The position numbers and the translations under genes are program-made. DNA of 64,000 bases from Acidimicrobiia bacterium (GTDB lineage: Bacteria; Actinomycetota; Acidimicrobiia; Spongiisociales; ZC4RG35): assembly GCA_965248705.1 (NCBI GenBank), contig CBDFJY010000002.1, forward strand, positions 919,095-983,094. The letters run 5' to 3'. A model generated the notes under the pieces. The model saw only the letters and a program-made list of their open reading frames with translations, was not told the DNA's origin and did not search any database. How positions within the stretch are numbered: the first letter of the stretch is position 1; every line of letters starts with the position of its first letter. This document shows positions 2,768 to 54,037 of this stretch, piece by piece.

Positions 2768-2811
2768 GGGCCTGTAGGTAAAGGACCGCGAGGGCGAGGA
2801 AGAGAGATACA

Positions 2812-3762: not shown

Positions 3763-3775
3763 GCAAGGAGGAACC

Positions 3776-5772: not shown

Positions 5773-5859
5773 GCCGCGCCGCAGAATCAGCGTCCGCGAC
5801 GGGCGCCGCGTCGGGATTGACCATCCTGGTTTCTCCCTGCATATGAGGTTACCGGCGCG

Positions 5860-6756: not shown

Positions 6757-6929
6757 GACCGCCGCTCCGAAGAGGGCGAACGCTATTTCGTCCCTCCGCC
6801 ATGTGGTCCCCTCCTCCATGACGACCCACGCCCCCGACCACTGCTGTTAGAAAAATAATGCCCTTTTGATAACAAGACACCAAGGCTAAGTATATATTTG
6901 AGGTTACAAGCGAGCGGAAGGAAGATCGA

Positions 6930-8687: not shown

Positions 8688-8728
8688 GCTTCCGGTAGCG
8701 ATTGCCTAGTAGGTAAAAGAGAGGCTCC

Positions 8729-8767
8729 GAGCGCGGGCAGGACGGGTTTGTCGTCCTGCCCCGCGCT
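8729..8767 (+). promoter_or_regulatory. Intercistronic stem-loop, copy 2
   Basis: GAGCGCGGGCAGGACG...CGTCCTGCCCCGCGCT. A C>A change on the 5' arm is matched by G>T on the 3' arm relative to copy 1. Confidence 0.5.
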
Positions 8768-8812
8768 TCGGCCTGTAGGTAAAGGACCGCGAGGGCGAGG
8801 AAGAGAGATACA

Positions 8813-9763: not shown

Positions 9764-9776
9764 GCAAGGAGGAACC

Positions 9777-11770: not shown

Positions 11771-11858
11771 GGCCCGCGCCGCGGAATAACGTCCGCGACA
11801 GGTGCCGCGTCGGGATTGACCATCCTGGGTTCTTTCCGTATAAGAAGCTGTCAACCAG

Positions 11859-12761
11859 TTGCTGACCGGCATCATCTTCGGGTTTATCACCGCGGTGACG
11901 CTGGGCATCAACCAGCTGCTCACTGCAGTGGTGGCCCGGCGCTTCGGCGTGCTGCGCTCCACTGCCATCACTGTGACCCTTGCCCTCTTGGTGATGGTCG
12001 CCTGGGCAATCATCATTCAGGTGCCGCTCGAGATCACCGCCGACCATGTGATCCTCTTGGTCCTGTTGGGTTCCTGTGTCGGCGGGACCTTTCTGTGTGG
12101 GTACACGGCTCTCCGACTCGGTCCGATCTCGGTGGTGAGCCCGATCGGCGCTCTGGGAGGCGCCATGACAGTGGTTTACTCGTTCTGGTTGTTGGGGGAA
12201 AGACCCGGCGCGGTGCAGTGGGCGGGAATACCGGTCGCGGTACTGGGAGCAGTGTTGGCATCCCTGGTGATCGAACGCGGGACCAAGATTCGACTGGTCA
12301 CTTTGGGGCCGGTCTTCGCCTTGATCGGCGTCCTGGTCGGGTCGATCTCCAACGCCGGCCTGAAGATCCCCATCAGGGATGGGGTGGATTCTAACCTCAC
12401 CGTCATCACCCAACGGGTCTTCACGGTGGCTGTCGTTCTTTTGGTGTTGGTAATTGTCCCCAGGGTGACAGAACGTCGACGAAGAAGAGACGCCCGGCAC
12501 GGGGGGAGAGATCCGGTGAAGATCACCTGGAGGACAGGATGGCTGCTGGGCTTGGTGGGATTGATCGACGCCGTCTCCTTCATATCATTCGGATACGGCC
12601 TGGCGTACGCACCGGCCTGGCTAATCGGAATTATCTCCCAAAGCGGACGGGTAATAGCCGTGATCGGCGGGGTGATGTTCTTCAACGAACGACTCCACCA
12701 ACTGCAATGGACAGGCGTAGCCTTGGTAATGGTCGGGGTGGCAATGTCCATCGCCGGCTAG
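11859..12761 (+). CDS. EamA/DMT transporter, copy 2
   Basis: Paralogue of 5860..6756, TTG start. Confidence 0.65.
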   Translation: MLTGIIFGFITAVTLGINQLLTAVVARRFGVLRSTAITVTLALLVMVAWAIIIQVPLEITADHVILLVLLGSCVGGTFLCGYTALRLGPISVVSPIGALGGAMTVVYSFWLLGERPGAVQWAGIPVAVLGAVLASLVIERGTKIRLVTLGPVFALIGVLVGSISNAGLKIPIRDGVDSNLTVITQRVFTVAVVLLVLVIVPRVTERRRRRDARHGGRDPVKITWRTGWLLGLVGLIDAVSFISFGYGLAYAPAWLIGIISQSGRVIAVIGGVMFFNERLHQLQWTGVALVMVGVAMSIAG

Positions 12762-12997
12762 CACCGCGGCCCGAGGAGGTACTCGTTGAGGGATTCAAGA
12801 AGGTCGTTGGTCGGATGCCACAATGCACGGGAAAGTGAACAGATGTCAGCAGGGTGGCCGGGGCGGAAGGAGCAGGAGGCCGCGGTGAAACTCTCGACGA
12901 CGGATAGGGCTTCGGACGCGGAATCGGCGTTCGCGGTCGAGCGGCCAATCGGGATTGGTCAGCCTGGCTTTTCCCTGTATGTGAAGCTGTCAACCAG

Positions 12998-13903
12998 GTG
13001 TTGACCGGCATCATCTTCGGGTTTATCACCGCGGTGACGCTGGGGATCAACCGCCTGCTCACTGCTGTGGTGGTACGGCGTTTCGGCGTGCTGCGCTCTG
13101 TCTCCGTCACTGTGACTCTGGCTTGCTTTTTGATGATGGCCTGGGCGGCGCTGATCGGTGTGCGAGTCGAGATGAATGCCGACCACCTGATCCTCCTGGT
13201 CCTGTTGGGCTCCTGTGTCGGCGGGGCCTTTCTGTGCGGTTACATGGCTCTCCGGGTCGGTCCGATCTCGGTGGTGAGTCCGATCGGCGCTCTGGGAGGC
13301 GCCATGACGGTGGTCTACTCCTTTTGGCTGCTGGGAGAGAGACCCGGCGCGGTGCAGTGGGCGGGAATACCGGTCGCGGTACTGGGAGCGGTGTTGGCGT
13401 CCCTGGTTATCCAGCGGGGGACCAAGATTCGACTGGTCACTTTGGGGCCGGTCTTTGCCTTGACCGGCGTGCTGGTGGGATCGATCTCCAACGCCGGCCT
13501 GAAGATCCCCATAAGGGATGGGGTGGATTCCAACCTCACCGTCATCACCCAACGGGTCTTCACGGTGGCTGTCGTCCTCTTGGTGTTTGTGATCTTCTCC
13601 CGGGTGATAGAACAACGACGACGAAGGGGAGATCCCCGGTACGAGGGGAGCCACCCGGTGAAGATCACCTGGCGGACGGGATGGCTGCTGGGTTTGGTGG
13701 GACTGATCGACGGCGCCTCCTTCATATCCTTCGGATATGCTCTGGCGCATGCACCTGCTTGGCTGATCTCGGTTATCTCCCAAACCGGACGGGTTATAGC
13801 CGTGATCGGCGGGGTGATGTTCTTCAACGAACGACTCCACAGCCTGCAGTGGACAGGCGTAGCTCTAATAAGCGTTGGAGTGGTGATGTCCATCGTCGGT
13901 TAG
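12998..13903 (+). CDS. EamA/DMT transporter, extra tandem copy (2b)
   Basis: Paralogue of 11859..12761. Preceded by a degenerate copy of the permease-2 3' tail. Confidence 0.65.
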   Translation: MLTGIIFGFITAVTLGINRLLTAVVVRRFGVLRSVSVTVTLACFLMMAWAALIGVRVEMNADHLILLVLLGSCVGGAFLCGYMALRVGPISVVSPIGALGGAMTVVYSFWLLGERPGAVQWAGIPVAVLGAVLASLVIQRGTKIRLVTLGPVFALTGVLVGSISNAGLKIPIRDGVDSNLTVITQRVFTVAVVLLVFVIFSRVIEQRRRRGDPRYEGSHPVKITWRTGWLLGLVGLIDGASFISFGYALAHAPAWLISVISQTGRVIAVIGGVMFFNERLHSLQWTGVALISVGVVMSIVG

Positions 13904-13931
13904 CACTGCCGCTAGCCGTTGGTTATGAAGA

Positions 13932-14140
13932 GCTGTGAAAGAAATCGTGGGTGGAGGATTGATTCTTGTCCCACGGGGGTTCACATTGAGATGTACCAAA
14001 CACCGAGACGGTCTGTCTTGGCATCGTTCGGACTTCGTCAAGGGATCAAACTGACCTCTTGCACGCCCTGTTCCGGGCTGGGCGGACGCGTGTTCGAACC
14101 GTGGCAAGGTGGTAGCGGGTCACTGCCGCTAGGCAGTGGG
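13932..14140. repeat. Conserved ~200-nt non-coding element, copy A (candidate structured RNA or miniature repeat element)
   Basis: ~75-80% nucleotide identity to 19354..19560 and 22451..22640. Internal hairpins with apparent compensatory substitutions. Terminal CACTGCC-GCTA-GGCAGTG hairpin. Confidence 0.5.
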
Positions 14141-14245
14141 CTTGCCTGAGGGCCCGGCAGGGAAGTGGTTTTTGCGCCTTTCCGCGGTGATTGGCAACAG
14201 AACCCGCCTCCGTGGGCTGGGGCCAGAGCTGGGTGGAGTCGGTGC

Positions 14246-15085
14246 TCAGTTCTCGGGGAAGGTGTACTGGAATACCCCGCCGGTGCGGATCATCTCGGCA
14301 GCGATGGCGTCGGCGTGGTCGATGAATCGGCGGAGCATGGCGTTGATTTGGTCCGGCACGTCTTGGAGTGCGCGATGTCCGGCGCCGACCGGTCTGCCGA
14401 TCACCACTTGGGGGCACAGCTCGCGGAGCAGGTCCAAGTCGAGGCGGGGTTGGCCGCAGTCAATGTACAGATACGGGCATTTCACTCCGGCCAGCACCGG
14501 CGCGGGATCGAAGCTGCTCATTCCATGCCAGCCGTTGAGGATCACGTGGTCGGGAACTTGCGCGAGCCGCGCGGCCATGGTTCCTACCCGGGAGGGGTCG
14601 TCGGTGGGCAGATAGGAGGCGCGAAGAAATCCGCGCAATGTCTCCCGGAAGGGGAGATCCTTTTGCATGAGGTGATCGAAGGGTCCGTGATGGTACTTCT
14701 GCCATCCGGGGATGTTGCTGGGCGAGTCGAGGCTGGCGATGGCGCTCACCAGTTCGGGATGGCGGGCGGCGGCCGAGATGATCACCTGTCCTCCCATGCT
14801 CTGGCCCACCAGCACGGGCCGATTCAGTTCCAGTTGGCGGATGAGTTCGGCCACGTCATCGCCGTGTTGGGCCATGGTGTAGGTCTCATCGGGCTTGTCG
14901 CTTTCCCCGTGGCCGCGCAGATCGACCGCCACGCACCGGTGATTGGGGGAGAAGTACTCCTCCTGGAAGCCGAAGCCTTCCCGATTGCCGAAGCCCCCGT
15001 GGATGAAAATGATGGCCGGATCGCCGGAGCCTAATTCGTGGTACGCAATGCGGTCGCCGTCGGGGGTAGTAATCCATTCAGTCAT
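14246..15085 (-). CDS. Alpha/beta-fold hydrolase, paralogue 1
   Basis: HG oxyanion motif IFIHGGFG, nucleophile elbow GQSMGG, C-terminal catalytic His in GAGH; 279 aa. Confidence 0.8.
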   Translation of the reverse strand: MTEWITTPDGDRIAYHELGSGDPAIIFIHGGFGNREGFGFQEEYFSPNHRCVAVDLRGHGESDKPDETYTMAQHGDDVAELIRQLELNRPVLVGQSMGGQVIISAAARHPELVSAIASLDSPSNIPGWQKYHHGPFDHLMQKDLPFRETLRGFLRASYLPTDDPSRVGTMAARLAQVPDHVILNGWHGMSSFDPAPVLAGVKCPYLYIDCGQPRLDLDLLRELCPQVVIGRPVGAGHRALQDVPDQINAMLRRFIDHADAIAAEMIRTGGVFQYTFPEN

Positions 15086-15388
15086 GGGACCCAGCCTAGT
15101 TTGTCCTATTTCTGGGTTGTAGCGACACTCGGGTCAATACCGGGTTAGTGGGGTTCGGCGGTGCATCCTGTTGCTTGATCACCACGTCGAGCAGAAAGGA
15201 AGCACCGCCGTGGGTAATGATGATGCCTTGTATCGCTTTAGGTTGGGGGTATTTGCTCTAGCAGAAGAGTTGGGAATCGTGCGTGTGCTGCATAACCGAA
15301 TGATGGGAATCCATCATTCTACGTTCATCGCTGGGCTTGAGTATATTTTGGAGCGTCAAGGTCGGCTGAATTGCTGGCTTAGCCGCTT

Positions 15389-17002
15389 TTGGTCGACAGC
15401 CGTTGGCCCGACGAGCAAGCGAGCGGAAGGAAAGCGCAAACGAGGAAATTCATATCAGCTATTTCTCTGGTGGCTATCTTGGCGTTGTTGGCTGCGGCCT
15501 GCGGCGACGGCGCGGCGGATACGGCTGCTGCGGACGCGGCTGTTGCTCAGGCCGAAGCCGCTGAGGCTGAGGCTGCTGCCAAGGAAGCCGACGAGGCCCA
15601 GAAGGCTCTGGAAGGGTCGATGATGGTGGAGGCCCCCGAGATTCGGGAAGCCGAGGTTGCGATGGGTTTCAACGCCTGTTGTGCCGATATGGCTTTTTGG
15701 CAGATTCCCGTCGAGTTGGGCTGGTGGGATGATTTGAATATCACCATCGTTCCCAATTCGTCCACCTATTACTATTTCGCCGCCGGCGCCGAGGCCATCG
15801 CCTGGTTGCGGAGCGGTGAAGGCGCCGTGGCCCCTGGGTGGGTGCCGGGACTGTTCGGGTCGTTGGAGACCTTTGCTCAGGAAGTCCCGCCGATTTTCTT
15901 CGCGGACATCTATGTCGGCTATGCGGTCCTGGTTGCGCCGGATAGTCCCTCCAAGACTGTGCTTGAGTTCGTGGAGGAAGGGATGTCTTTCCCGGAAGCC
16001 GCCTTGGCGGCCGTCCAGCAGTTGGTAGGGGCGGATATTTACATTTCGCCCAGCACCCAGCAGGCTCAGTACATGGATGCGTTCTTCGCTTATCTGCCCG
16101 AGTGGTGGGAGGCTTATCAGGAGGACATTCCCGCTTTGGACGAGGATGGCAACCCTCTGGTGTTGTTGGGCCGCGACGGCGAGCCACTTCTGGACGAGGA
16201 CGGCAGCGTTCAGCCGATTCGGATCACGACCAACGACTGGCGTAACTATGCCAACCCGCAGTACGTCCATGACCCCACGATCCTGGCGCTTTCGGCTGTT
16301 CCGGGCCGGATCGAGTACGCCATGCCTTATAGCGCTCCGACCCTGGTGCAGATGATGCGCAACGGTTGGGATCCGCTGATCAACTTCGGGATGATGTTCG
16401 AGAATGATCCGGTCTCCCAGCAGACGGCGATCGCCAACTCCACTGTCGGCGGTATAGGCCTGCTAGCGAACCGCGAATGGGTCAATAACAACAAGGACCT
16501 GGCCTACAGGGTTCTCTCTGCCGCCTATCGTACCTTTGAGTTCCTCGATGATCCTGAGACCCAGTACCAGGGGTGGGAGATCGAGGCCAATCTCATCAAC
16601 GAGAAGCGCCAGTTGAGCATGGAGCCTGAGGACATCGGGATCATCTGGTCGACCATCGATCCCTCCTTTAACTGGGAGGAGCAGGCGGCGCTGTGGGACT
16701 TGAACCTCCCGAGCTACCACCCCGAGATAGTGTTCGTCACTCAGATCGAGAAGCTGAAGGCCAAGGGGGTGTTGTCCGAGGACTATGACACGCAGGCCGG
16801 GCTGAAAGAGTTCTTGTTGGCCCAGGACCTCTACTATGAGATGAAGGAATTCGAGACGCGCTCCGACGCACTATTCGAGAGAGCTTCGGGAAGAGATCTT
16901 TCCCCGGCCCAGGCCGCTTTAATCGCCCAGGCGCAGTTCCACTATGACATCTATAACTTCTACGACGCTCTCCGCTTCTTGGAGGCTGCCCTTATCGGGT
17001 AG
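15389..17002 (+). CDS. Substrate-binding lipoprotein of ABC cassette 3
   Basis: Paralogue of copy 1. The ancestral ATG is mutated to ACG, so an upstream ATG at 15389 gives a longer signal n-region. Shorter low-complexity linker. Confidence 0.5.
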   Translation: MVDSRWPDEQASGRKAQTRKFISAISLVAILALLAAACGDGAADTAAADAAVAQAEAAEAEAAAKEADEAQKALEGSMMVEAPEIREAEVAMGFNACCADMAFWQIPVELGWWDDLNITIVPNSSTYYYFAAGAEAIAWLRSGEGAVAPGWVPGLFGSLETFAQEVPPIFFADIYVGYAVLVAPDSPSKTVLEFVEEGMSFPEAALAAVQQLVGADIYISPSTQQAQYMDAFFAYLPEWWEAYQEDIPALDEDGNPLVLLGRDGEPLLDEDGSVQPIRITTNDWRNYANPQYVHDPTILALSAVPGRIEYAMPYSAPTLVQMMRNGWDPLINFGMMFENDPVSQQTAIANSTVGGIGLLANREWVNNNKDLAYRVLSAAYRTFEFLDDPETQYQGWEIEANLINEKRQLSMEPEDIGIIWSTIDPSFNWEEQAALWDLNLPSYHPEIVFVTQIEKLKAKGVLSEDYDTQAGLKEFLLAQDLYYEMKEFETRSDALFERASGRDLSPAQAALIAQAQFHYDIYNFYDALRFLEAALIG

Positions 17003-17135
17003 GCTTCCGGTTCGATTGCCTAGTGGCAAAAAAAAGCGCCGCTCCGGCCTGTAAGCAGGACTGCGAGGAAGAGAGAGCGGCGGCGCATCGCCAGAAACGG
17101 CGCCGCCAAATCACCGAGGAGGAGGCGACGAAAGC

Positions 17136-18353
17136 TTGAACCAACCAGCCCTCTTCCGACGTCTGTTCTGGGTTGGGTGGCTGATCTGGGCTGTCCTGAT
17201 TCCGTGGTTGCTTATTCAGTTGCCGGAAAGCCTTCCTTTCGTTACCTGGACGCATGGTGAGGGTGTGATCAACGTCACGTGGTCTTATATCGTTTCCGGG
17301 TTGGTGTTGTTCTGGGCTTGGCCGGTTGTGTTCCGCACGACCCGGTTCAAGGACCGTCTGGTCAGGGCGGGGCGGGGGATAGCGGCGGGGCCGCCGATGC
17401 TGTGGGCTGGTATGCGCCGTAGCCCGCTCTTCTTCGTCTCTTGGGTGGTGTTGCTGGTGGCGTGGCAGGTGGCGTCTTATGTTGCGCCTCCGGGAATTCT
17501 CGAGCATCCCCTGGTTCCCGGATGGGACTACGTGTTCGGTGACACCTTCTTCGGATTGTCCGGGTACTGGACCGTCCGCGTGTTGGACCTTGGGTTCGCG
17601 ACCTTCCATCTCGACGGACTGGCGCCGCTTCCCATCTATGGTGGGGAGGAGACCTGGCCGGCCGTGTTCCTCGCAATCGCTTATCACTCCGGTACGACCC
17701 TTTTCAGGCTGTTGTGTGGCATGGTGGTCGGCGTGACGCTCGGTCTCCTGACCGGTCTGGGCCTTCCCTACTGGCCGGCGGTGCGCCAGACCGCGTGGGC
17801 GCCCATGAACTTCCTGCGGATGATCCCCCTCCTAGTGGCGATTCCCTGGTTGCAGTTCGCCGTGGGCTCCAGCCTCACTGGTATCACCCTCTATATCGCC
17901 TTCGGGGTGTGGACGACGCTGGTGGTGGCCACCATGAATGCGGTAGCCAACGTGCCCGACCGGTACATCGAAAGCGCCCGTACCCTGGGCGCCTCCCGGC
18001 CGCGCACCTATTTCAAAGTGATAGTGCCGGGGTCGATTCCAGAACTGCGCACCGCCATGCTGCTCGCCATGGGAGGGAGCTGGTCGCTGGCGATCGCCGC
18101 CGAGTTCCTGGGTTTCTCCGCCGGGCTGGGGTACATGGCCAACGGGGCGGTGCAGGAAACCAACACCGCCCGGCTGTTGATAGTGGCGTTCATCGTGGCT
18201 CTTTATTCTCTCACGACTTTCTTCTTGCTCAACGAGGGATTCAAAAAGGCCGTTAGCTGGATGCCCCAGCGTACCACCAGGGGGCCGGACATCGCTAAGG
18301 TGGCCGGGGCGGCAGGAGCGGCAGGCCCCGTCGAAACCCTGGAAGACAGATAG
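17136..18353 (+). CDS. ABC transporter permease 2, copy 3
   Basis: Paralogue of 4549..5772. Permease 1 and the ATPase are missing upstream. Confidence 0.7.
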   Translation: MNQPALFRRLFWVGWLIWAVLIPWLLIQLPESLPFVTWTHGEGVINVTWSYIVSGLVLFWAWPVVFRTTRFKDRLVRAGRGIAAGPPMLWAGMRRSPLFFVSWVVLLVAWQVASYVAPPGILEHPLVPGWDYVFGDTFFGLSGYWTVRVLDLGFATFHLDGLAPLPIYGGEETWPAVFLAIAYHSGTTLFRLLCGMVVGVTLGLLTGLGLPYWPAVRQTAWAPMNFLRMIPLLVAIPWLQFAVGSSLTGITLYIAFGVWTTLVVATMNAVANVPDRYIESARTLGASRPRTYFKVIVPGSIPELRTAMLLAMGGSWSLAIAAEFLGFSAGLGYMANGAVQETNTARLLIVAFIVALYSLTTFFLLNEGFKKAVSWMPQRTTRGPDIAKVAGAAGAAGPVETLEDR

Positions 18354-18428
18354 GACCCGCTTGCAGTTGGGCGGTGCGTCGGGACCTAGGCGCCATGGCC
18401 TCTTTCCGTTTATGAAGCTGTCCACGGG

Positions 18429-19325
18429 GTGCTGACCGGCGTCATCTTCGGGTTTATAACCGCGGTGACGCTGGGGATCAACAGTCTGCTCACTGCCGTA
18501 GTGGCGCGGCGCTTCGGCGTGCTGCGCTCTGCTGCCGCCACGCTGACGCTGGCTCTCTTGGTGATGGTCGCCTGGGCAATCCTCATCGACGTGCCGCTCG
18601 AGATGACCACCGACCATCTGATCCTCTTGACCTTTCTGGGCACCTGCGTCGGCGCCTCCTTTCTGGGCTCCTATATGGCCCTCCGACTGGGCCCGATCTC
18701 CGTGGTAACACCGATCGGCTCTCTGGGGACCGCGATGACAGTGGTCTACTCCTTTTGGCTGCTGGGGGAAAGACCCGGTGCCTTGCAGTGGGCGGGAATA
18801 CCGATCGCCGTGCTGGGAGCAGTACTGGTATCGCTTGTAATCAAACGCGGGACCAGGGTTCGACTGGTCACCTGGGGACCGGTCTTCGCGTTGATCGGCG
18901 TATTCGTAGGATCGATCTCCAACGCCGGCCTGAAGATCCCCATCAGGGACGGAGTCGACTCCAACCTGACCGTAATCACCCAACGGGTCTTCACAGTGGC
19001 CTTCGTCCTGTTGGCGTTGGTGGTTTTCTCCCGGCTGGGATTACGGCGTCGGCGAGAGGGAGATGACCCTCAGTACCCGATGAGGATCACCTGGAAGACA
19101 GGATGGCTCTTGGGCCTGGTGGGACTGATCGACGGCGTCTCTTTCATATCATTCGGATACGGATTGGCCTACGCACCGGCCTGGTTGATCGCGATCATCT
19201 CCCAAAGCGGAAAGGTGATAGCCGTAATCGGCGGGGTGATCTTCTTCAAGGAACGACTCCACCGACTTCAGTGGACCGGCGTGGGGCTGATAATGGTCGG
19301 CGTGATGATGTCCCTCGTCGGCTAA
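18429..19325 (+). CDS. EamA/DMT transporter, copy 3
   Basis: Paralogue of 5860..6756, GTG start. Confidence 0.65.
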   Translation: MLTGVIFGFITAVTLGINSLLTAVVARRFGVLRSAAATLTLALLVMVAWAILIDVPLEMTTDHLILLTFLGTCVGASFLGSYMALRLGPISVVTPIGSLGTAMTVVYSFWLLGERPGALQWAGIPIAVLGAVLVSLVIKRGTRVRLVTWGPVFALIGVFVGSISNAGLKIPIRDGVDSNLTVITQRVFTVAFVLLALVVFSRLGLRRRREGDDPQYPMRITWKTGWLLGLVGLIDGVSFISFGYGLAYAPAWLIAIISQSGKVIAVIGGVIFFKERLHRLQWTGVGLIMVGVMMSLVG

Positions 19326-19660: not shown

Positions 19661-20500
19661 TCAGTTCCCGGGAAAGGTGTATTGGAATACTCCGCCGGTA
19701 CGGATCATCTCGGCGGCGATGGCGTCGGCGTGTTCGATGAATCGGCGCAGCATGGCGTTGATCTGGTCCGGCACTACCTGGAGGGCTCCATGTCCGGCGC
19801 CGACCGGTTTGCCGAACACCACTTGGGGGCACAGTTCGCGGAGCAGGTCCAGGTCGATGCGAGGCTGTCCGCAGTCAACATATAGATAAGGGCACTCTAT
19901 GCCTGCCAGTATCGGCGCGGGATCGAAGGCGCTCAACCCGTGCCAGTCGCTGAGGATCACGTGGTCGGGAACTTGGGCCAGCCGCTCGGCTGTGTTCTTG
20001 GCGCGGGTCGGGTCGTCGGTGGGCAGGTGGGAGGCGCTGAGAAACCCGACCAGCGTGTCCCGGAAGGGTAGGTCCTTTTGCATCAGGTGATCGAAGGGTC
20101 CGTGATGGTACGCGGTCCACCCGGGGATGTTGCTGGGAGAGTCCAGGCTGGCGATCGCTCCGACGAGGTGGGGATGGCGGGCGGCGGCGGAGATGATTAC
20201 CTGTCCTCCCATGCTCTGGCCGACCAGCACCGGCCGGTTCAGTTCCAGTTGGCGGATGAGTTCGGCAACATCATCGCCGTGCTGTTCCATGGTGTAGAGA
20301 TGATCGGGCTTGTCGCTTTCCCCGTGGCCGCGCAGATCGACCGCGATGCAGCGGTGATTGGGGGAGAAGTACTCCTCCTGGAGGCCGAATCCTTCCCGAT
20401 TGCCGAAGCCGCCGTGGATAAGGATGATGGCCGGATCGCCTGCACCCACCTCGTGGTATGCAATGCGGACGCCGTCGGAGGTGGTGATCCATTCGGTCAT
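19661..20500 (-). CDS. Alpha/beta-fold hydrolase, paralogue 2
   Basis: Same motifs as paralogue 1. Confidence 0.8.
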   Translation of the reverse strand: MTEWITTSDGVRIAYHEVGAGDPAIILIHGGFGNREGFGLQEEYFSPNHRCIAVDLRGHGESDKPDHLYTMEQHGDDVAELIRQLELNRPVLVGQSMGGQVIISAAARHPHLVGAIASLDSPSNIPGWTAYHHGPFDHLMQKDLPFRDTLVGFLSASHLPTDDPTRAKNTAERLAQVPDHVILSDWHGLSAFDPAPILAGIECPYLYVDCGQPRIDLDLLRELCPQVVFGKPVGAGHGALQVVPDQINAMLRRFIEHADAIAAEMIRTGGVFQYTFPGN

Positions 20501-20573
20501 GTGCCGTAGCGTAGTTGTCGGGGTCTCATAGACGGCTAGGGACAGGTCACTATGACGGCTTCGGGTGCAATCC

Positions 20574-21413
20574 CTATGTGGAGGGGAAGGTGTATTGGAA
20601 GACGCCGCCGGTGCGGATCATCTCGGCGGCGATGGCGTCGGCGTGTTCGATGAACCGCCGAAGCATGGCGTTGATTTGGTCCGGCACCACCCGGAGGGCC
20701 CCATGTCCGGCGCCGACCGGTTTGCCGACCACCACTTGGGGGCACAGTTCGCGGAGCAAGTCCAGATCGACGCGCGGCTGTCCGCAGTCGACGTACAGAT
20801 AAGGGCACTTCACCCCAGCCAGCAACGGCGCGGGATCAAAGGCCATCATCCCCTGCCAGCCGTTGAGGATCACATGGTCGTCAAGCCGGGCCAGCCGCGC
20901 CGCTGTGTTCTTGGCGCGGGTCGGGTCGTCGGTGGGCAGATGGGCGGCGCTGAGGAAGAGTTCCAGCGCCTTCCGGAAGTCTTGGTCCTTTCGCATGAGG
21001 TGATCGAAGGGTCCGTGATGGTAGGCGTGCCATCCGGGGATGTTGCTGGGCGAGTCGAGGCTGGCGATGGCGCCCACCAGTTCGGGATGGCGGGCGGCGG
21101 CCGAGATGATCACCTGTCCCCCCATGCTTTGTCCCACGAGGACTGGCCGATCCAGATCCAGTTGGCGGATAAGTTCGGCCACATCGTCGCCGTGTTGTTC
21201 CATGGTGTAGAGCTCATCGGGTTTGTCGCTTTCGCCGTGCCCGCGCAGATCGACGGCGATGCAGCGGTGATTGGGGGAGAAGTACTCCTCCTGGAGGCCG
21301 AAGCCTCCCCGATCGCCGAAGCCGCCGTGGATAAGGATGATGGCCGGGTCGCCAGCGCCCAGTTCGTGGTAGGCGATGCGGACGTCATCGGAGGTGGTGA
21401 TCCATTCAGTCAT
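20574..21413 (-). CDS. Alpha/beta-fold hydrolase, paralogue 3
   Basis: Same motifs (GQSMGG, GAGH). Confidence 0.8.
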   Translation of the reverse strand: MTEWITTSDDVRIAYHELGAGDPAIILIHGGFGDRGGFGLQEEYFSPNHRCIAVDLRGHGESDKPDELYTMEQHGDDVAELIRQLDLDRPVLVGQSMGGQVIISAAARHPELVGAIASLDSPSNIPGWHAYHHGPFDHLMRKDQDFRKALELFLSAAHLPTDDPTRAKNTAARLARLDDHVILNGWQGMMAFDPAPLLAGVKCPYLYVDCGQPRVDLDLLRELCPQVVVGKPVGAGHGALRVVPDQINAMLRRFIEHADAIAAEMIRTGGVFQYTFPST

Positions 21414-21542
21414 GTCACTCAGCTTAGGTTGTCAGCCCGGCAGGGGAGGGCGAAACGGCGCCAGGAAATTGGTGCTCCAGTTGGCGTTATACGCCCGTCC
21501 GGCGTTCGCCGGTCCCAAGTGAGCGGTGTTCGCCGCGGGTCC

Positions 21543-22385
21543 TTATGTGGAGGGGAAGGTGTATTGGAATACTCCGCCGGTGCGGATCATTTCGGCGGCG
21601 ATGCCGTCGGCGTGTTCGACGAATCGGCGGAGCATGGCGTTGATCTGGTCCGGCACGTCCTGGAGGGCCCGATGTCCAGCGCCGACCGGCTTTCCGATCA
21701 CCACCTGGGGGCACAGCTCACGGAGCAGATCCAGGTCGAGATCCGGCTGACCGCAGTCGATGTACAGGTAGGGACACTTCACCCCGCGCAGCGTGGGTGT
21801 GGGGTCGTAATCGGCCTTGCCCCGCCAAGTGTTGAGGATCAACTTGTCGGAAACTTCGGCGAGCCGTGCGGCCATGGTGCCCACCCGGGAGGGGTCGTCG
21901 GTAGGCAGATAGGCGGCTTTGAGGAACGTGTAGAGTGTTTCGCGGATAGGGGGGCCGTCCTTGCTCATCAGGGGTTGGTAGGGACCGTGAAAACGCTGGT
22001 GCCACCCGGGGATGTTGCTGGGCGAGTCCAAGCTGACGATCGCCCCCACCAGTTCGGAGTGGCGGGCGGCGGCAGCGATCACCACCTGTCCGCCCATGCT
22101 CTGGCCCACCAGCACGGGCCGATGCAGCCCCAGGTGGCGGATGAGATCTGCCACGTCATCCCCGTGTTTGTCCATGGTGTAGGGCTCATCGGGCTTGGCG
22201 CTGTCGCCGTGGCCACGCAGGTCGACCGACACGCACCGGTGATTGGGCGAGAAGTACTCCTCCTGGAAGCCGAATCCTCCCCGCTTGCCGTAAGCGCCGT
22301 GGATGAAGAGGATGGCCGGGTCGCCGGCGCCCACCTCGTGGTAGGCAATGCGCACCCCGTCGGAGGTGGTAATCCATTCAGTCAT
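21543..22385 (-). CDS. Alpha/beta-fold hydrolase, paralogue 4
   Basis: Start set at the conserved MTEWITT (ATG 22385). The longer reported ORF is an upstream over-extension. Confidence 0.75.
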   Translation of the reverse strand: MTEWITTSDGVRIAYHEVGAGDPAILFIHGAYGKRGGFGFQEEYFSPNHRCVSVDLRGHGDSAKPDEPYTMDKHGDDVADLIRHLGLHRPVLVGQSMGGQVVIAAAARHSELVGAIVSLDSPSNIPGWHQRFHGPYQPLMSKDGPPIRETLYTFLKAAYLPTDDPSRVGTMAARLAEVSDKLILNTWRGKADYDPTPTLRGVKCPYLYIDCGQPDLDLDLLRELCPQVVIGKPVGAGHRALQDVPDQINAMLRRFVEHADGIAAEMIRTGGVFQYTFPST

Positions 22386-22450
22386 GTCACTGAGCTTAGG
22401 GTGTCGTGTCGCGGTGTGGCACCAACACTTTTCGTCTGTTTTTGTCAAAG

Positions 22451-22640
22451 GTTGTGAAACAAATCGCTGTTGGGGGGTTGATTCTGTTCCCCGGGGAGTT
22501 CATATTGATACAAGCCAAACACCAAGACGGTCCGCCCAGGCGTCGTTCGGGCCGCGTCGAGGGATCAAATGTCCTTATTCAACCAGCCCTGTTCCGGGCT
22601 GGACGAGTCTGTTCGACCCATGGCAAGGTGGTGGTGGGGG
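22451..22640. repeat. Conserved ~200-nt non-coding element, copy C
   Basis: Homologous to copies A and B. Here it lies between two hydrolase genes rather than after an EamA gene. Confidence 0.45.
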
Positions 22641-22870: not shown

Positions 22871-23710
22871 TCATGTGGAGGGGAAGGTGTATTGGAATAC
22901 CCCGCCGGTGCGGATCATTTCGGCGGCGATGCCGTCGGCGTGTTGGATGAAGCGGTTGAGCATGGCGTTGATCTGGTCCGGCACGTCCTTGGTGGCCTGA
23001 TGACCGGCGCCCACCGTTTTGCCGATCACCACCTGGGGGCAGAGCTCGCGGAGCAGATCGAAGTCGAGACCGGGTTGGCCGCAGTCGATGTAGAGATAGG
23101 GGCACTTCACCTGGCGCAGTACCGGCGCCGGATCAAAGGCGCTCATTCCCTGCCAGCCGTTCACGATCACATGCCCTGGAACCTCGGCCAGCCAGTCTGG
23201 CATTTCCCCGACCCGCGACGGGTCGTCGGTGGGCAGATAGGCGGCGCTGAGGAAGGTTTGCAGCGCCTCCCGGAAGGGGCCGTCCTTGGTCATCAGGTGG
23301 TCGAACGGACCATGAAAGCGCCGGTGCCATCCGGGGATGTTGCTGGGCGAGTCCAGGCTGGCGATCGCCCCCACCAGTTCGGGATGGCGGGCGGCTACGG
23401 AGATGACCACCTGTCCGCCCATGCTGTGACCAACCAGGATAGGCCGCCGTATCCCCAGATGGCGAAGCCATTCGGCAGCCTCATCGGCGTATTTGTCCAT
23501 GGTGTAGAGTTCATCGGGCTTGTCGCTGTCGCCGTGGCCACGCAGGTCGATAGCCAGACACCGGTGATTGGGCGAGAAGTATTCCTCCTGGAATGTGAAA
23601 CCAGTCCGGTTGCCGAACCCGCCGTGGATGAAGACGATGGGCGGATCGCCGGCGCCCGCCTGGTGGTAGGCGAGGCGTACGCCGTCGGAGGTGGTGATCC
23701 ATTCAGTCAT
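22871..23710 (-). CDS. Alpha/beta-fold hydrolase, paralogue 5
   Basis: GHSMGG variant of the nucleophile elbow. Confidence 0.8.
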   Translation of the reverse strand: MTEWITTSDGVRLAYHQAGAGDPPIVFIHGGFGNRTGFTFQEEYFSPNHRCLAIDLRGHGDSDKPDELYTMDKYADEAAEWLRHLGIRRPILVGHSMGGQVVISVAARHPELVGAIASLDSPSNIPGWHRRFHGPFDHLMTKDGPFREALQTFLSAAYLPTDDPSRVGEMPDWLAEVPGHVIVNGWQGMSAFDPAPVLRQVKCPYLYIDCGQPGLDFDLLRELCPQVVIGKTVGAGHQATKDVPDQINAMLNRFIQHADGIAAEMIRTGGVFQYTFPST

Positions 23711-23840: not shown

Positions 23841-24680
23841 TTATGTCGAGGGGAAGGTGTATTGGAATACTCCGCCGGTGCGGATCATTTCAGCGGCTAT
23901 GGCGTCGGCGTGTTCGATGAATCTGCGGAGCATGGCGTTGATCTGATCCGGCACGTCCTTGGTGGCGGCGTGACCGGAGCCCACCGTTTTGCCGACCACC
24001 ACCTGGGGGCACAGCTCACGGAGCAGATCGAAGTCGAGATACGGCTGGCCGCAGTCGATGTAGAGATAGGGGCATTTCACCTGGCGCAGTACTGGAGCCG
24101 GATCGAAGGAGCTCAATGCCCACCACGCTCTGGTGATTACATGGTCGGGAAACCCGGCCAGCCGCTCCGTGATTCCCGCGACTCGCGATGGGTCGTCGGT
24201 GGGCAGATAGGCGGCGCCGAGGAAAGTTTCCGCTGCTTCCCGGAAGGGACCGTCCCTGGTCATCAGGTGGTCGAAGGGGCCACTAAAGCGTCTCTGCCAT
24301 CCGGGGATATTGCTGGGCGAGTCCAGGCTGGCGATCGCCCCCACCAGTTCGGGATGGCGGGCAGCCGCGGAGATGACCACCTGTCCGCCCATGCTGTGAC
24401 CCACCAGGATGGATCGGCGGAGACCGAGTTGGCGGATCAGCTCGGCCACGTCGTCGGCGTGTTTGGCCATCGAATAGACCTCGTCGGGTTTTTCGCTGTC
24501 GCCGTTGCCGCGCAGGTCGACCGCCACGCACCGGTGATTGGGCGAGAAGTACTCCTCCTGGAAGCCGAAGCCTCCCCGATTGCCGTAGATACCGTGGATG
24601 AAAACAATGGGTGGATCCCCGGCGCCCACTTGGTGGTAGGCGATGCGTACACCGTCGGGGGTGGTGATCCATTCAGTCAT
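23841..24680 (-). CDS. Alpha/beta-fold hydrolase, paralogue 6
   Basis: Start set at the conserved MTEWITT (ATG 24680); GHSMGG. Confidence 0.75.
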   Translation of the reverse strand: MTEWITTPDGVRIAYHQVGAGDPPIVFIHGIYGNRGGFGFQEEYFSPNHRCVAVDLRGNGDSEKPDEVYSMAKHADDVAELIRQLGLRRSILVGHSMGGQVVISAAARHPELVGAIASLDSPSNIPGWQRRFSGPFDHLMTRDGPFREAAETFLGAAYLPTDDPSRVAGITERLAGFPDHVITRAWWALSSFDPAPVLRQVKCPYLYIDCGQPYLDFDLLRELCPQVVVGKTVGSGHAATKDVPDQINAMLRRFIEHADAIAAEMIRTGGVFQYTFPST

Positions 24681-24745
24681 GTCGCCGAGCTTAGGTATCC
24701 GGGTGATCAACCCCGCAGACAGTCAATTCCCGGCAGCCCGGGTGG

Positions 24746-39612: not shown

Positions 39613-40017
39613 CTAGTCGGCGGGGTTTAGCTCCAACGAACAGGAGTTAAGGCAGTAGCGCTTCCCGGTGGGTCCGGGTCCGTCCGGGAACAGATGTCCG
39701 AGATGTCCTCCGCATCCCTTGCACAGCACCTCGGTGCGGGCCATGCCGTGGGAGGTGTCGGTGCGGGTCTCGATTCGCTCCGAATCCATGGCCTCCCAAA
39801 AGGAGGGCCACCCGGTGCCCGAGTCGTATTTGGTGTTGGAATCGAACAGTTCCATTCCGCATCCCGCGCAGGCGTAGATTCCGGGGTCCTTGGTGTTCCA
39901 GTAAGCGCCAGTGAAGGGGTGTTCCGTACCACCTTCCCGCAACACCTGGTATTGCATCGGGTCGAGGCGTTCCTGCCACTCGGATTCGGTTTGGGGTAGG
40001 GCAGTCTTTTCGCTCAT
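39613..40017 (-). CDS. msrB: Peptide-methionine (R)-S-oxide reductase
   Basis: Two CxxC zinc motifs and a catalytic RYCLNSCSL-type C-terminus. Confidence 0.9.
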   Translation of the reverse strand: MSEKTALPQTESEWQERLDPMQYQVLREGGTEHPFTGAYWNTKDPGIYACAGCGMELFDSNTKYDSGTGWPSFWEAMDSERIETRTDTSHGMARTEVLCKGCGGHLGHLFPDGPGPTGKRYCLNSCSLELNPAD

Positions 40018-43334: not shown

Positions 43335-44242
43335 GGTCATTTCCTTTTCATGTTGTTGGGTTGTGTTGGGAGATGGAAGGCCACTAGCCCTCGGTGTCTT
43401 TTGAAAACAAGACATCGTGGGTGGGGTGAACCCTCTTTTCATGGTTTCTTCTTGTCTGATGTTGTCTAGGTCGGGGCCCTCGGCGTTTGGGTGTCTCGTC
43501 CCGTTCGCGGTACCTGGTTCCAGACTCTGTGGGGACGGCTTACCCTCGTCTGGGTACAGGTAGCCCAAGTTTCGGCAGAAGGCATGGAAAACGCCTCCGG
43601 GGTGTGGATGTCCTAGGGGTAGGGGTTGCTACCCGCTGTTTTCGACCTAATACGCCGGGTAAGCCGGCGCCGAGGATGGTTTGATACTCGGCCGTAGGGA
43701 AGACCTACTGCGCCCGCCGGGGTGCGGGCGTTTCAACTAGTGAAAAGCAATCGAGGAGCGGTGGTTAAAGCACCTGGCAACCGTTTAGCATCCAACCAAC
43801 CGGCCTTCTCGGCGCTGCGATCCGAACTGCTGGATTGGGTAGCCGTCAGGCGCCACTAGTCGAGACAGTCGGGATCGAACTCCCCTTGGGACTTGCCTAC
43901 CGGCCCACGACTCCTGACCGGACTTGATCAAGAGTCGGTTGGCCCTTCGGTAATCGCCGTAATGCCAAACAGGCCTTTGGTCTAATGAGTTTCATGGTTA
44001 GGTTCCTTTTTTCATTGTTTGGGTGTTTTTGGGAAGGCGAAACGCGATTCGCCTTTAAGCCCATACTAAAGGAACTGAGACTCTATATCGTGGATAAAGG
44101 TTACATTTTTTTTTCGCGGGTTTGATATTCCGCCGCGTGGTGCGACCAAGCGTCTGCAATTTTTCTTTGGTCAGGAGATTGCCGAAGCCGGTCACCTGCC
44201 CGCGCGGGCGCTCCCCAACCGGACGATGGCGCGCACCCCGTT

Positions 44243-44755
44243 TCAGCGTGAGAGGGCGGCTAGGACCTCGGGAAAGGCAGCTTCGGCGAGGGCTTGCATC
44301 TCTTCGTCGGTCCGGTCCTGGATGGGGTGGGACGTCAGCACCCTGCGGGGATACATGCCCAGGGCCTCTCCCTGGGCATCGGCCGCCTGGGCGAATCGGT
44401 CCGATGCGACGAACACCCCTGCTACACCCCGGTCTTCCAAATCAACGAGGTCGTGCACACTGCACGACGCGCACGATCCTCAGTCGGCCAGGGCTTCCAC
44501 CACTGCCGTGCACTCGGCGGCGATCTGCTGGCGCAGATCGAGGGGGGCCGGTTTGGAGAAGGTGGGCTTGCGGTAGTGCCTTACCGACACCCCCCTTTGG
44601 GAGAACAGCTCTTCCAGCCTCTTTATGAAGACATCGCCGCGCGGTTTGGAGATGTCCAGCAGGGCAACGGTCTGACCGGCAAGATCGGCGATTCGAGGAC
44701 TGAGGGGCCGCTTATGGGTAGTTCTTTCGCTGGTCGGGTCCAACAAGGCAGTCAT
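44243..44755 (-). CDS. Probable UGSC-family selenoprotein; in-frame TGA (44482..44480) read as selenocysteine
   Basis: ORFs 44480..44755 and 44243..44458 are in the same frame, separated only by TGA. The peptide across the junction reads ...ALAD-U-GSCASCS. A perfect 8-bp hairpin GUCGUGCA-GUG-UGCACGAC starts 11 nt after the UGA, at SECIS spacing. Confidence 0.6.
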
Positions 44756-44768
44756 CTGGCGCCCCCTT

Positions 44769-46232
44769 TTAGTAGTCGATAGCGGCGGTGGTCATTTGCG
44801 AACTGGATGCTCCACCGATCCAACCTGAGATTATCGCGGAGAACATTCCGGCGTCCCCGCCGGCGTGAACAAACCAAAGGCCTTCGGGAGTGAACTTCAA
44901 TACTTCCTTCTTCTTGGCAGCCACTGCGGGCGGCAGGCCCTCCGCGACTCCACCGGCGCCGGCCACCATCTCGTCGGTGGGGAGCGTGAGAAGGGCAGAG
45001 ATTTCTTGGCGAAGCCGGGCCTTGGACCAACCCGCTTCCCGGAAGACTCGGGCATGCTCGGGAGAAACCACCACTATGGCCTCGGACAATCCGGCAAACT
45101 TGGGATGACCTATCATGCGCAGCTGCAATGCGAAAGTGCGGGCCAGGGATTCGGGGTGGCGGGACCGCTGATCAACTATCTCGATCGGCCCGTGTCCGGC
45201 GAAGAGGGTGACGGTGGAATCCTGGGAGGAGTATCCCCGCTCTACTGACAAAGACTCCCATGGTGATCCTTCCTCATCCTCGGGAAAACAAAAGGACAGC
45301 TTTCCGGGGCTGCCCAGCGCGGCCCGGTCCACTCCGCCGGGCCGGGCGCCGCCCACATTGCGGACCACCAGGTTGAGGGCCCGCCCGATGGTCATGTTGG
45401 CTCGGTTGCCTTGGCCGAGGGCGTTGATCCCCGAATTCATCCCGATCCGTCGCCGGATCGGGCCGTTTACCACCAGCACGGGACCCGTGAAGTAGGTGGT
45501 GGCGGCGATGCCATGGATGTTAAAACGCTTCCCAGCTGCTGCTTTTACCGCCGACAGCACCACCGGCAGATACTCGGGCAAACAGCCCGCCATCACTGCG
45601 TTGATGGCCACTTTTTCAACTGTGCATTCCGCCAGGTCGGGAGGAAGGACACAGACCACCTCTTCGGGGGACAGGGGCGTGCCTTCCAGCATTCTCGCCA
45701 CTCGTCTCTCGGTGGGGGGTGTTACCGGCAAGCCATCGGTCCATCCGCGGGCGAAAGCCGCTTCGATGGGGTCCTCCGAGCTTCCCATCTCTATTCGACG
45801 AGATGCCAGGCGGTGAGGGGAATGTCGCCGTAGCATTCGCTGGTGAACATCGGGCAGCATGGTGTCCGAGCCGCACCCGGGGCGTTGGTCCGGTAGTCCT
45901 TTCCCCAGGCCTTGGGTTGCGGTCACCCGCTCCCACCCGCTTCTCAGCCAGCCTGCCTGCTGATCGACCACCTTGCCGCTCTCAATGCGATAGATGGTGG
46001 GGGTGGTCTCGGTTTGAAGTTGCCAGGAGATTTCCAGTTCTCGGTCGTGAATAACTTCCAATCCCGGAGGAAAGTCGGCTTGGTCCTGGGACACCAATGC
46101 CGGAGTGTGTCCTCCTCGGGACAACTCGGTGAGGACGGGTATCACCAAATGGCAGGTTTCGCAATCCTCTTTGATCACCACCACCAGCCCGTTGGGGATC
46201 GGAAGACTTGTAGGGGGTTGGTCGTTGGTCAA
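44769..46232 (-). CDS. Thioredoxin-like (CETC) domain fused to a ~380-aa domain of unknown function; immediately upstream of and co-oriented with the selenoprotein gene
   Basis: N-terminal CxxC plus a cis-Pro TPT thioredoxin-fold signature. The C-terminal domain is not recognised. 13-nt gap to the downstream gene. Confidence 0.5.
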   Translation of the reverse strand: MTNDQPPTSLPIPNGLVVVIKEDCETCHLVIPVLTELSRGGHTPALVSQDQADFPPGLEVIHDRELEISWQLQTETTPTIYRIESGKVVDQQAGWLRSGWERVTATQGLGKGLPDQRPGCGSDTMLPDVHQRMLRRHSPHRLASRRIEMGSSEDPIEAAFARGWTDGLPVTPPTERRVARMLEGTPLSPEEVVCVLPPDLAECTVEKVAINAVMAGCLPEYLPVVLSAVKAAAGKRFNIHGIAATTYFTGPVLVVNGPIRRRIGMNSGINALGQGNRANMTIGRALNLVVRNVGGARPGGVDRAALGSPGKLSFCFPEDEEGSPWESLSVERGYSSQDSTVTLFAGHGPIEIVDQRSRHPESLARTFALQLRMIGHPKFAGLSEAIVVVSPEHARVFREAGWSKARLRQEISALLTLPTDEMVAGAGGVAEGLPPAVAAKKKEVLKFTPEGLWFVHAGGDAGMFSAIISGWIGGASSSQMTTAAIDY

Positions 46233-46678: not shown

Positions 46679-47251
46679 CTACCCGATGGCGCCTTCGACT
46701 TGGAGCAATGTGCGTTTGCGCTCGGTCCCGCCCAACCCGTAGTGGCCGATCAGGCCGTTGGAGCGTACCACCCGGTGGCAGGGGATCACCAGGGGAACCG
46801 GGTTACGGGCCATGGTCTGTCCCACCGCCCGGGCGGCTTTGGGGCGTCCGGTGCGCCGGGCCAGCCATCCGTAGGAGCGCGTCTCACCGCGGGGGATGGC
46901 AGCAGTTTCATTCAGAACCTGTCGCTGGAAATCGGTTACCGAGCGAAAATCGACCGGAAGAGCACCGGGCGTGCCCTCCGCCAAGGCTTGGAGGATCAGA
47001 TCGTTCCACGTTTGGGGCGGCCGAGCTTCCAACAGTCGTCTTCGGAAACGTTGCTCGAATCGCTGCTGGAACCCATCGTCGAGCAGGTCCACAGCCGAAA
47101 CGCCCAGGGGATTGAATGCCACCACAACCGGCCCCAGGGGAGATTCGAACACCGAGAAACCATCCGACAACCCGGTTCCAAGCGCCACCCCGTCCTTTAC
47201 GCCCCTGGGGGCAGGGATTGCCAGTCGTCCCAACTTCTTTTCAATATTCAT
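46679..47251 (-). CDS. ogt: Methylated-DNA--protein-cysteine methyltransferase
   Basis: PCHRVV active site, HTH-like DNA-binding region. Confidence 0.85.
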   Translation of the reverse strand: MNIEKKLGRLAIPAPRGVKDGVALGTGLSDGFSVFESPLGPVVVAFNPLGVSAVDLLDDGFQQRFEQRFRRRLLEARPPQTWNDLILQALAEGTPGALPVDFRSVTDFQRQVLNETAAIPRGETRSYGWLARRTGRPKAARAVGQTMARNPVPLVIPCHRVVRSNGLIGHYGLGGTERKRTLLQVEGAIG

Positions 47252-53188: not shown

Positions 53189-54037
53189 TCAGGATCCAGT
53201 CGGCGGGAAGCTGTACTGGAATACCCCGCCGGTGCGGATCATTTCGGCGGCCAGGGCGTCGGCGTTTTCGATGAACCGCCTGAGCATGGCGTTGACCTGG
53301 TCGGGAACATCCTGTAGGGCCTTATGTCCGGAGCCCACTGTCTTTCCGATCACAACCTGGGGACAAAGCTCTCTGAGCCAACCAAAATCCAGACCAGGCT
53401 GGCCACAATCGATGTACAGGTAAGGCGCTTTCACCTTGGCCAGCACCGGGACAGGGTCGAATAAGGTCATGGTCTGCCAGCCATTGACGAGCACATAATC
53501 GGGGATCGGGGCCATTCTTTCCATGAAGCTACCCGCATGATCCGGGTCGGTGGAGAGATAGGCGGCGCCGATGAACATCTGCAGCGCTTCCCGAATGGGG
53601 CCGTCCGAAGTCATCAAATGATCGAATGGGCCGATGTAGCTCTTGGTCCACCCCGGAGCGTTGCTGGGTGAATCGAGACTGGCTATCGCTCCCACCAAGT
53701 CGGGATGCCGGGCGGCGACGCTTATGACGACCTGTCCTCCCATGCTCTGGCCGATCAGAACAGGTCGGTTCAAACCAAGGTGACGGATCAATTCGGCGAC
53801 ATGGTCGGCATGTTCCGCCATGGTGATGATCCGATCGGGTCTATCGCTTTCACCGGTGTGACCTATCAGATCGACGGCCAGGCGCCGGTGACTGGGAGAA
53901 AAGTACTCCTCCTGGAGGCCGAAGCCTCCTCGGCTACCGTATACGCCGTGGATAAAGATCAGCGCCGGATCACCTGCACCCATGTCGTGGTAAGCGAGCC
54001 GTTCGCCGGCTGCAGTGGTAAACCATTTTGTAGTCAT
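53189..54037 (-). CDS. Alpha/beta-fold hydrolase, paralogue 7 (distant copy of the tandem-array family)
   Basis: IFIHGVYGSRGGFG, GQSMGGQV, GSGH. Confidence 0.8.
   Translation of the reverse strand: MTTKWFTTAAGERLAYHDMGAGDPALIFIHGVYGSRGGFGLQEEYFSPSHRRLAVDLIGHTGESDRPDRIITMAEHADHVAELIRHLGLNRPVLIGQSMGGQVVISVAARHPDLVGAIASLDSPSNAPGWTKSYIGPFDHLMTSDGPIREALQMFIGAAYLSTDPDHAGSFMERMAPIPDYVLVNGWQTMTLFDPVPVLAKVKAPYLYIDCGQPGLDFGWLRELCPQVVIGKTVGSGHKALQDVPDQVNAMLRRFIENADALAAEMIRTGGVFQYSFPPTGS

Follow-up and report, generated by a model that had tools for sequence, protein, structure and literature searches.

A UGSC-family selenoprotein gene with an in-frame UGA, a SECIS-like hairpin and a conserved partner gene in an Acidimicrobiia bacterium

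We describe here a two-gene operon on the minus strand of a 64,000-nucleotide stretch of DNA from an Acidimicrobiia bacterium (assembly GCA_965248705.1, contig CBDFJY010000002.1, positions 919,095 to 983,094); the whole stretch is called the window below, and all positions are counted from its first letter. The second gene of the operon, at 44243..44755, is a selenoprotein gene of the UGSC family in which an in-frame UGA would be read as selenocysteine (Sec) by way of a hairpin just downstream, a bacterial selenocysteine insertion sequence (SECIS). The first gene encodes a conserved partner protein, together with which the selenoprotein would play a redox role. We put the probability of this reading as a whole at roughly 0.92. 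Its foundations, all established in this work, are the family membership of the gene, the correspondence of its UGA to cysteine (Cys) in homologues, selection on the hairpin at the RNA level, translation of the region downstream of the UGA, the pairing of the two genes, and the presence of Sec machinery in relatives.

Gene model and family membership

On the minus strand, 44243-44755 is one frame of 171 codons, running from an ATG at 44755-44753 to a true stop TGA at 44245-44243, and its sole internal stop is the TGA at 44482-44480. Around that codon the translation reads ...AVVEALAD*GSCASCSVHDLVDLEDR... and continues to the true stop. The list of open reading frames (ORFs) for the window gives two same-frame halves instead, 44480..44755(-) with 91 aa and 44243..44458(-) with 71 aa. 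An earlier note on this stretch had pointed to these two minus-strand ORFs, parted only by the TGA, and had proposed a 170-aa read-through product containing ...VVEALAD-U-GSCASCSVHDL...; the arrangement is present in the sequence and our translation reproduced the product. The UGA at 44480..44482(-), read as Sec, is residue 92 and the first of U-G-S-C-A-S-C. The locus should be annotated as one 170-aa selenoprotein, Sec included, and not as two fragments. A Shine-Dalgarno-like AAGGGGG at 44762..44768(-), 6 nt before the ATG and within the 13-nt gap that follows the TAA of the partner gene, would serve as its ribosome-binding site. Among all in-frame TGA joins of the window, a coding-like GC pattern together with a redox-type motif was seen at 44482 only, and this survey across the 64 kb found no second selenoprotein.

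Profile searches were made with the read-through product carrying Cys in place of Sec. It matches NCBIfam NF041046, 'UGSC family (seleno)protein', with 141 bits against a curated cut-off of 125 (E 2.7e-41, profile positions 2-146 of 147), and Pfam PF24696, 'UGSC family', with 145.3 bits against a cut-off of 25 (profile positions 2-171 of 172). The family label named in the earlier note is therefore a real one, matched above cut-off in both collections. Together the two profiles cover product residues 4-169, that is, they span the TGA. The tetrapeptide U/C-G-S-C falls at a conserved column, the window reading ALAD-U-GSCASC and its homologues ALAD/LSD-C-GSCTSC, with C, G, S and C invariant. A weak match to Pfam DUF116 also lies over the motif region (E 0.043).

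A UGSC-containing protein was first noted in Hyphomonas neptunium and a gutless-worm symbiont, as a selenoprotein of unknown function (PMC1976440). In the Global Ocean Sampling data UGSC was later among the most abundant selenoprotein families, with 255 Sec and 21 Cys forms (PMC2398784), and a domain called 'Unknown_1' was found fused to UGSC in those data. A 2026 review, which links UGSC to NF041046, still lists it among the families of uncharacterised function (PMC13188914). Our gene is a genuine member of this family and, since the family has been known and curated for years, the selenoprotein call is not in itself novel.

Cysteine in homologues and a fixed TGA in relatives

A protein search covered 5.8 billion proteins, and the 120 best matches were examined. 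About 40 of them are full-length homologues (137-188 aa), 45-58% identical to the read-through product; at the column of the window's TGA, 36 of the 38 aligned full-length homologues carry Cys and the other two (P0002, P0004) carry W. Another 79 of the 120 are fragments of about 93-120 aa, 63-70% identical, which cover the N-terminal 52-54% of the query and all stop in the alignment at ...EALAD, one residue short of the TGA column. This is much as the earlier note had foreseen, both in expecting ORF callers to split or truncate the gene and in expecting a BLASTP-type search to return Sec/Cys-aligned homologues. It had also named, as an outcome that would count against its proposal, homologues that end before the TGA, and the full-length homologues go on past it with Cys. 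The database entries of about 93 aa are caller truncations, a systematic mis-annotation of the UGA, and the W in P0002 and P0004 is best explained by a caller run with an alternative code in which TGA is Trp. Public collections hold many such UGSC truncations of about 93 aa (P0042-P0120), and Trp stands in place of Sec in at least two of their entries (P0002, P0004).

At the DNA level, one genome per species was scanned; at least 586 genomes contain relatives, and the best 80 loci were fetched for comparison. These are mostly from Acidimicrobiia, with some from Pseudomonadales, Myxococcota, Chloroflexota, Dormiibacterota and Eisenbacteria; the nearest are Acidimicrobiia metagenome-assembled genomes (MAGs), with OZ244034.1 at 92%. 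The aligned internal codon is TGA in all 80 loci, followed in frame by GSCxSC, and none of the 80 has a frameshift or a second stop. Their terminal stops are spread over three codons (TGA 42, TAG 28, TAA 9), and in the window TGA ends 21 of the 47 called genes, the UGSC gene included. As read from these sequences the genetic code is standard, and the true stops drift while the internal TGA does not, a combination that excludes sequencing error and code reassignment. A further 79 genes from metagenomes are of Cys type and encode nearly the same peptide (CGSCTSCSTHD).

Constraint does not fade beyond the TGA. Ratios of nonsynonymous to synonymous substitution (dN/dS) were taken against the five closest relatives, L001-L005, at 80-92% protein identity. 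They are 0.065-0.15 over the 88 codons before the TGA and 0.07-0.10 over the 78 codons after it, the latter at a synonymous divergence (dS) of 0.64-1.3, and the outcome is unchanged with the hairpin codons left out. Since a region lying past a real stop would not show a dN/dS of 0.07-0.10, the half downstream of the TGA is, by this measure, translated in this lineage. The earlier note had recognised that an unrelated downstream ORF would undo its proposal; what we see there is the same family profile and purifying selection.

Selection on the hairpin

The UGA is followed by an 11-nt spacer, GGAUCGUGCGC (44469..44479(-), the codons G-S-C plus two bases), and then by the hairpin at 44450..44468(-), with a 5' arm GUCGUGCA at 44468-44461, a GUG loop at 44460-44458 and a 3' arm UGCACGAC at 44457-44450. 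Its stem is a perfect 8 bp with a folding free energy of -10.9 kcal/mol, the distance from UGA to loop is 19 nt, and GU occupies loop positions 1-2. A perfect 8-bp hairpin 11 nt after the UGA was thus correctly placed in the earlier note, and its spacing is indeed SECIS-like. The published consensus for bacterial SECIS elements has an apical loop of 3-9 nt, a stem of 4-16 bp, 16-37 nt from UGA to loop and a minimum free energy (MFE) of -7.5 kcal/mol or lower (PMC13188914), and on all four counts the hairpin falls within it (3-nt GUG loop, 8 bp, 19 nt, -10.9 kcal/mol). The same consensus has a G within the first two loop positions, usually a G followed by G or U (PMC13188914).

One hairpin alone is weak evidence: of the window's 1705 TGA trinucleotides, 7 have an equally good one after them, and the z-score of the local fold is no more extreme than -1.56. 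A single such hairpin being no rarity, the case must be comparative. The hairpin is present at the same offset in all 81 Sec-type sequences, 75 of them with all 8 pairs, and the complete 8-bp stem occurs in none of the 79 Cys-type sequences. In a register test 96.9% of cells pair, while registers slid out of place reach 1.6-60%. The MFE fold of the window differs from this hairpin: a longer stem at 44435-44490(-), formed through the direct repeat UCGUGC...UCGUGC that encodes S-C-A-S-C, reaches -25.6 kcal/mol and engages the G and A of the UGA. We rejected this longer stem as it is not conserved in orthologues, and the register of the earlier note is therefore the relevant one.

Codon choice in the Sec forms follows the outline of the hairpin closely. 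Serine is encoded by six codons at Ser+2 in the spacer, by TCG in 74 of 75 sequences at Ser+5 and by AGT in 81 of 81 at Ser+7. Cysteine is TGC in 57 and TGT in 24 at Cys+3, again in the spacer, and TGC in all 81 at Cys+6 in the stem; aspartate is GAT in 45 and GAC in 29 at Asp+13, outside the hairpin, and GAC in 80 of 81 at Asp+10, inside it. At each position of the hairpin the Cys-type genes are spread over 2-5 synonymous codons, and the AGT serine codon that supplies the GU of the loop, universal in the Sec type, is found in 2 of the 79. Expressed as codon entropy inside the hairpin, this is 0-0.11 bits for the Sec forms versus 0.63-2.01 bits for the Cys forms; outside the hairpin the two are comparably variable at synonymous sites. 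Only one site inside the stem stays free in the Sec forms, namely the third base of His+9 (CAC/CAT), which faces a G that can pair with C or U alike, and one stem pair appears as GC (15), GU (7) or AU (2) and never as AC. Judged by this pattern of codons, the hairpin is under selection at the RNA level.

The partner gene, the predicted fold and a proposed mechanism

The conserved partner gene lies at 44769..46232(-), co-oriented and 13 nt upstream of the UGSC gene, and encodes 487 aa. Its N-terminal ~100 aa have a thioredoxin fold with C24-E-T-C27 at the first helix, and this is followed by a Cys-rich C-terminal domain of ~370 aa. The protein has no match in Pfam or NCBIfam and no sequence match in the PDB, and the same holds for the large ~370-aa domain taken by itself, which has no counterpart in any of the three. 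It has a 100%-identical database entry, P0121, and more than 8000 homologues, a few of which are named 'thioredoxin family protein'. Of the 160 loci that were fetched, 143 have the partner immediately upstream of UGSC and on its strand, and the 12 Cys-type loci without it are all on truncated contigs.

The structure of the UGSC protein was predicted on P0001, a Cys homologue 58% identical to it. The predicted fold is a five-fold beta-alpha one, flavodoxin-like, with the Sec-equivalent residue at the beta3/alpha3 junction; the 'likely Trx-like fold' suggested for UGSC (PMC2398784) was not recovered when the structure was tested for a thioredoxin fold. In redox selenoproteins U-x-x-C typically stands at a strand-to-helix junction (PMC2398784). 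Because the Sec of our protein is predicted to stand at such a junction with U-x-x-C spacing, the model points to a redox-active selenenylsulfide/selenol-thiol centre, which would be made up of U92 with C95 and possibly C98.

We propose the following course of events. During translation the UGA at 44482-44480 would not be read as a stop. The hairpin would offer its GU apical loop 19 nt from the UGA and so recruit SelB-GTP-Sec-tRNA(Sec) to the ribosome, and selenocysteine would be put in as the first residue of U-G-S-C-x-S-C. This recoding route is that of established bacterial Sec insertion, and by analogy SelB is expected to bind the hairpin described here. The finished protein most likely acts as a small redox carrier or subunit together with the upstream partner. 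Reducing equivalents would pass between UGSC and the partner's thioredoxin-fold C-x-x-C domain, and the partner's C-terminal domain would do the substrate chemistry. Both the redox mechanism and a physical interaction with the partner are putative parts of this scheme.

Sec machinery beside the operon in relatives

In 6 of the 80 Sec-type loci tRNA-Sec and sel genes stand beside the operon. All six are Ilumatobacteraceae/Acidimicrobiaceae MAGs; five of them (L013, L017, L031, L065 and L072) have selD, selA and selB there, and L057 has selD and a partial selB at the edge of the locus. The order in L013, an Ilumatobacteraceae MAG, is selD (AIRS/AIRS_C), selA (PF03841, 331 bits), selB (GTP_EFTU plus SelB winged helix), tRNA-Sec(UCA), partner and UGSC, within positions 380-6501. 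Beside the operon in the Cys-type loci, whose flanks are shorter than those of the Sec-type loci, neither tRNA-Sec nor sel genes were found. The genome from which the window comes presumably carries selA, selB, selD and selC as well, and the organism would then be Sec competent.

It is tempting to go a step further. UGSC and its partner may constitute an uncharacterised and very widespread two-protein redox (or metallo-) enzyme system, and the adjacent selD-selA-selB-tRNA-Sec in some Acidimicrobiia suggests that this system may be a main reason why these bacteria keep Sec decoding; we hold this idea tentatively, at somewhat less than even odds.

Alternative explanations

Several of our results weigh against the reading given above, and they are gathered here with the alternatives that they concern. 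The alternative that survives best leaves the gene model as it is and changes the function: U/C-x-x-C-x-x-C together with an invariant His/Asp would bind a metal or an iron-sulphur (Fe-S) centre with Sec as a ligand, and the partner would act either as a maturase or as a metalloenzyme's catalytic subunit. We consider this unlikely, while granting it a real share of the probability. The redox relay is itself proposed on gene adjacency and motifs, and the fold was obtained from P0001 and not from the window protein. Pairing with the partner is also not universal, as five Sec-type loci lack it. One of these is truncated; in the other four no copy is detectable although 5 kb or more of DNA is available upstream. 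These four are L038, L049, L056 and L069 (Eisenbacteria, Myxococcota, a MAG labelled Ferrithrix, and Haliangium). As for a link to metalloenzymes, the match of the fold to known structures, at 10-12% identity, concerns an alpha/beta architecture that is very common and does not prove that a cofactor is shared, the U-x-x-C at a strand-to-helix junction is what is usual for redox selenoproteins (PMC2398784), and a thioredoxin-fold C-x-x-C domain in the partner fits thiol/selenol exchange. The redox pair is the likelier of the two.

It should also be considered that the hairpin might be a by-product of self-complementary codons for S-C-S-V-H-D, with read-through brought about by some other signal. 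Part of the palindrome does come free with the peptide, in that the codons for S-C (UCGUGC) and H-D (CACGA) are complementary, so that UCGUG tends to pair with CACGA wherever S-C...H-D is encoded, and some Cys-type genes fold shorter stems of 6-7 bp at the same place. The z-score given above is modest. A search of the window against Rfam at the gathering score left the hairpin unmatched, with only a noise match of E 6.4 around it, so that the Infernal check suggested in the earlier note yielded no family. Formal covariation on the hairpin is not significant, 76-85 of 500 shuffles reaching the observed values, because five of the eight stem pairs never vary; the case therefore rests on the synonymous-site contrast between Sec and Cys forms. 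It is this contrast that makes a by-product highly improbable. With a near-identical peptide, the full 8-bp stem is present in 75 of 81 Sec-type and in 0 of 79 Cys-type genes; the Cys type varies its codons at each hairpin position and the Sec type fixes one, AGT among them; synonymous sites just outside the hairpin are equally variable in both; and the only site left free is one at which either base pairs with G. Selection on a functional SECIS remains the better account.

A genuine stop at the TGA, leaving a truncated gene or pseudogene with a 91-aa N-terminal product and a decaying remnant downstream, is slightly less probable again. Gene callers do produce a model of the 91-aa type for most relatives, and no Sec machinery is visible in the window: selA, selB, selD and tRNA-Sec are all absent from the 64 kb, where ARAGORN and Rfam find tRNA-Gly as the only tRNA, Pfam searches of nearly all called ORFs give no SelA, SelB or SelD domain, a motif search over all frames gives neither a SelB-type P-loop nor a SelD motif, and tblastn with SelA, SelB and SelD of L013 gives no match. 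A remnant, however, would not have 78 codons as constrained as the upstream half, nor family profiles that span both halves; the internal TGA is the same in 80 of 80 loci while true stops drift over three codons, and in no locus has a frameshift or second stop crept in. Decoding of the UGA as a standard amino acid (Trp, Gly or Cys), whether by a reassigned code or by near-cognate suppression, is the weakest proposal and barely credible, for although P0002 and P0004 are recorded with W at the UGA position, these entries are best explained by callers using an alternative code, TGA terminates 21 of the 47 called genes of the window, this one among them, relatives carry tRNA-Sec(UCA) and sel genes beside the operon, and the family is a documented Sec/Cys one (PMC2398784, PMC13188914).

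Other features of the window

Two further genes belong to families that include selenoproteins in some organisms, MsrB (SelR domain) at 39613-40017(-) and the O6-methylguanine methyltransferase gene ogt at 46679-47251(-); both ORFs are uninterrupted by TGA. Downstream of the operon, the 674 nt at 43569-44242, between the UGSC stop and a gene with a VWA domain, lack a convincing ORF. Of the VWA protein, residues 390-527 alone can be matched in L001, the nearest relative, a sign that the sequence beyond the operon may have decayed or been rearranged.

The region 745-19325 contains three tandem transporter modules, each with a lipoprotein-like binding protein, whose N-terminus is Ala/Glu-rich and of low complexity, and an EamA-type membrane protein. 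Two of the three also carry a first permease and an ABC-type ATPase, identities that were read by eye, and the binding-protein ORFs have no Pfam match. Among and beyond these repeats lie the genes of five alpha/beta-hydrolase paralogues, each about 280 aa long and almost identical to one another at both termini (14246-15085, 19661-20500, 22871-23710, 23841-24710 and 53189-54037, all on the minus strand). An ORF of 630 aa at 20565-22457(+) appears to be spurious, an antisense frame.

Significance and comparison with known systems

If the reading is correct, a flavodoxin-like selenoprotein with a U-x-x-C-x-x-C centre has as its partner a protein in which a thioredoxin domain is fused to a catalytic domain of ~370 aa. 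In aquatic metagenomes the family ranks with the most abundant selenoproteins. Its near-obligate pairing with the partner, its non-thioredoxin fold and the Sec machinery that adjoins the operon in some Acidimicrobiia offer starting points for working out its function. The comparison of Sec and Cys forms is also a clean natural experiment on RNA-level selection for a SECIS inside coding sequence.

Set against the UGSC family as described (reference ABI76733.1 from Hyphomonas neptunium; PMC1976440, PMC2398784, PMC13188914), the window gene is alike in its length of ~170-180 aa, in the motif column and in passing both profile cut-offs. It belongs with L001-L005 to a subclade that has Ala for Thr at +4 (GSCASC versus GSCTSC), and there is otherwise no substantive difference. 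The flavodoxin-like fold predicted here differs, however, from the Trx-like fold proposed for the family (PMC2398784). Mmp7 and McrC of the methyl-coenzyme M reductase activation complex (PDB 8s7v, chains H and I) resemble it in fold only, at 10-12% identity; the alpha/beta fold is a very common one, no sequence-level relationship was detected, and the organisms and context are other.

The hairpin is like the bacterial SECIS of the bSECISearch model, with E. coli fdhF as prototype, in lying directly after the UGA inside the coding sequence and in agreeing with the consensus described above. In the E. coli element a U is bulged and the loop, larger than here, is contacted by SelB, whereas in the window the stem is perfect, without a bulged U, the loop has the minimal 3 nt and the sequence is unrelated to fdhF. 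Finally, the protein is comparable to the thioredoxin-fold UxxC/CxxU selenoproteins (Trx-, Prx-, SelW- and DsbA-like): in both, Sec and Cys lie two residues apart at the N-terminus of a helix that follows a strand, Cys homologues exist, and a redox role is presumed.
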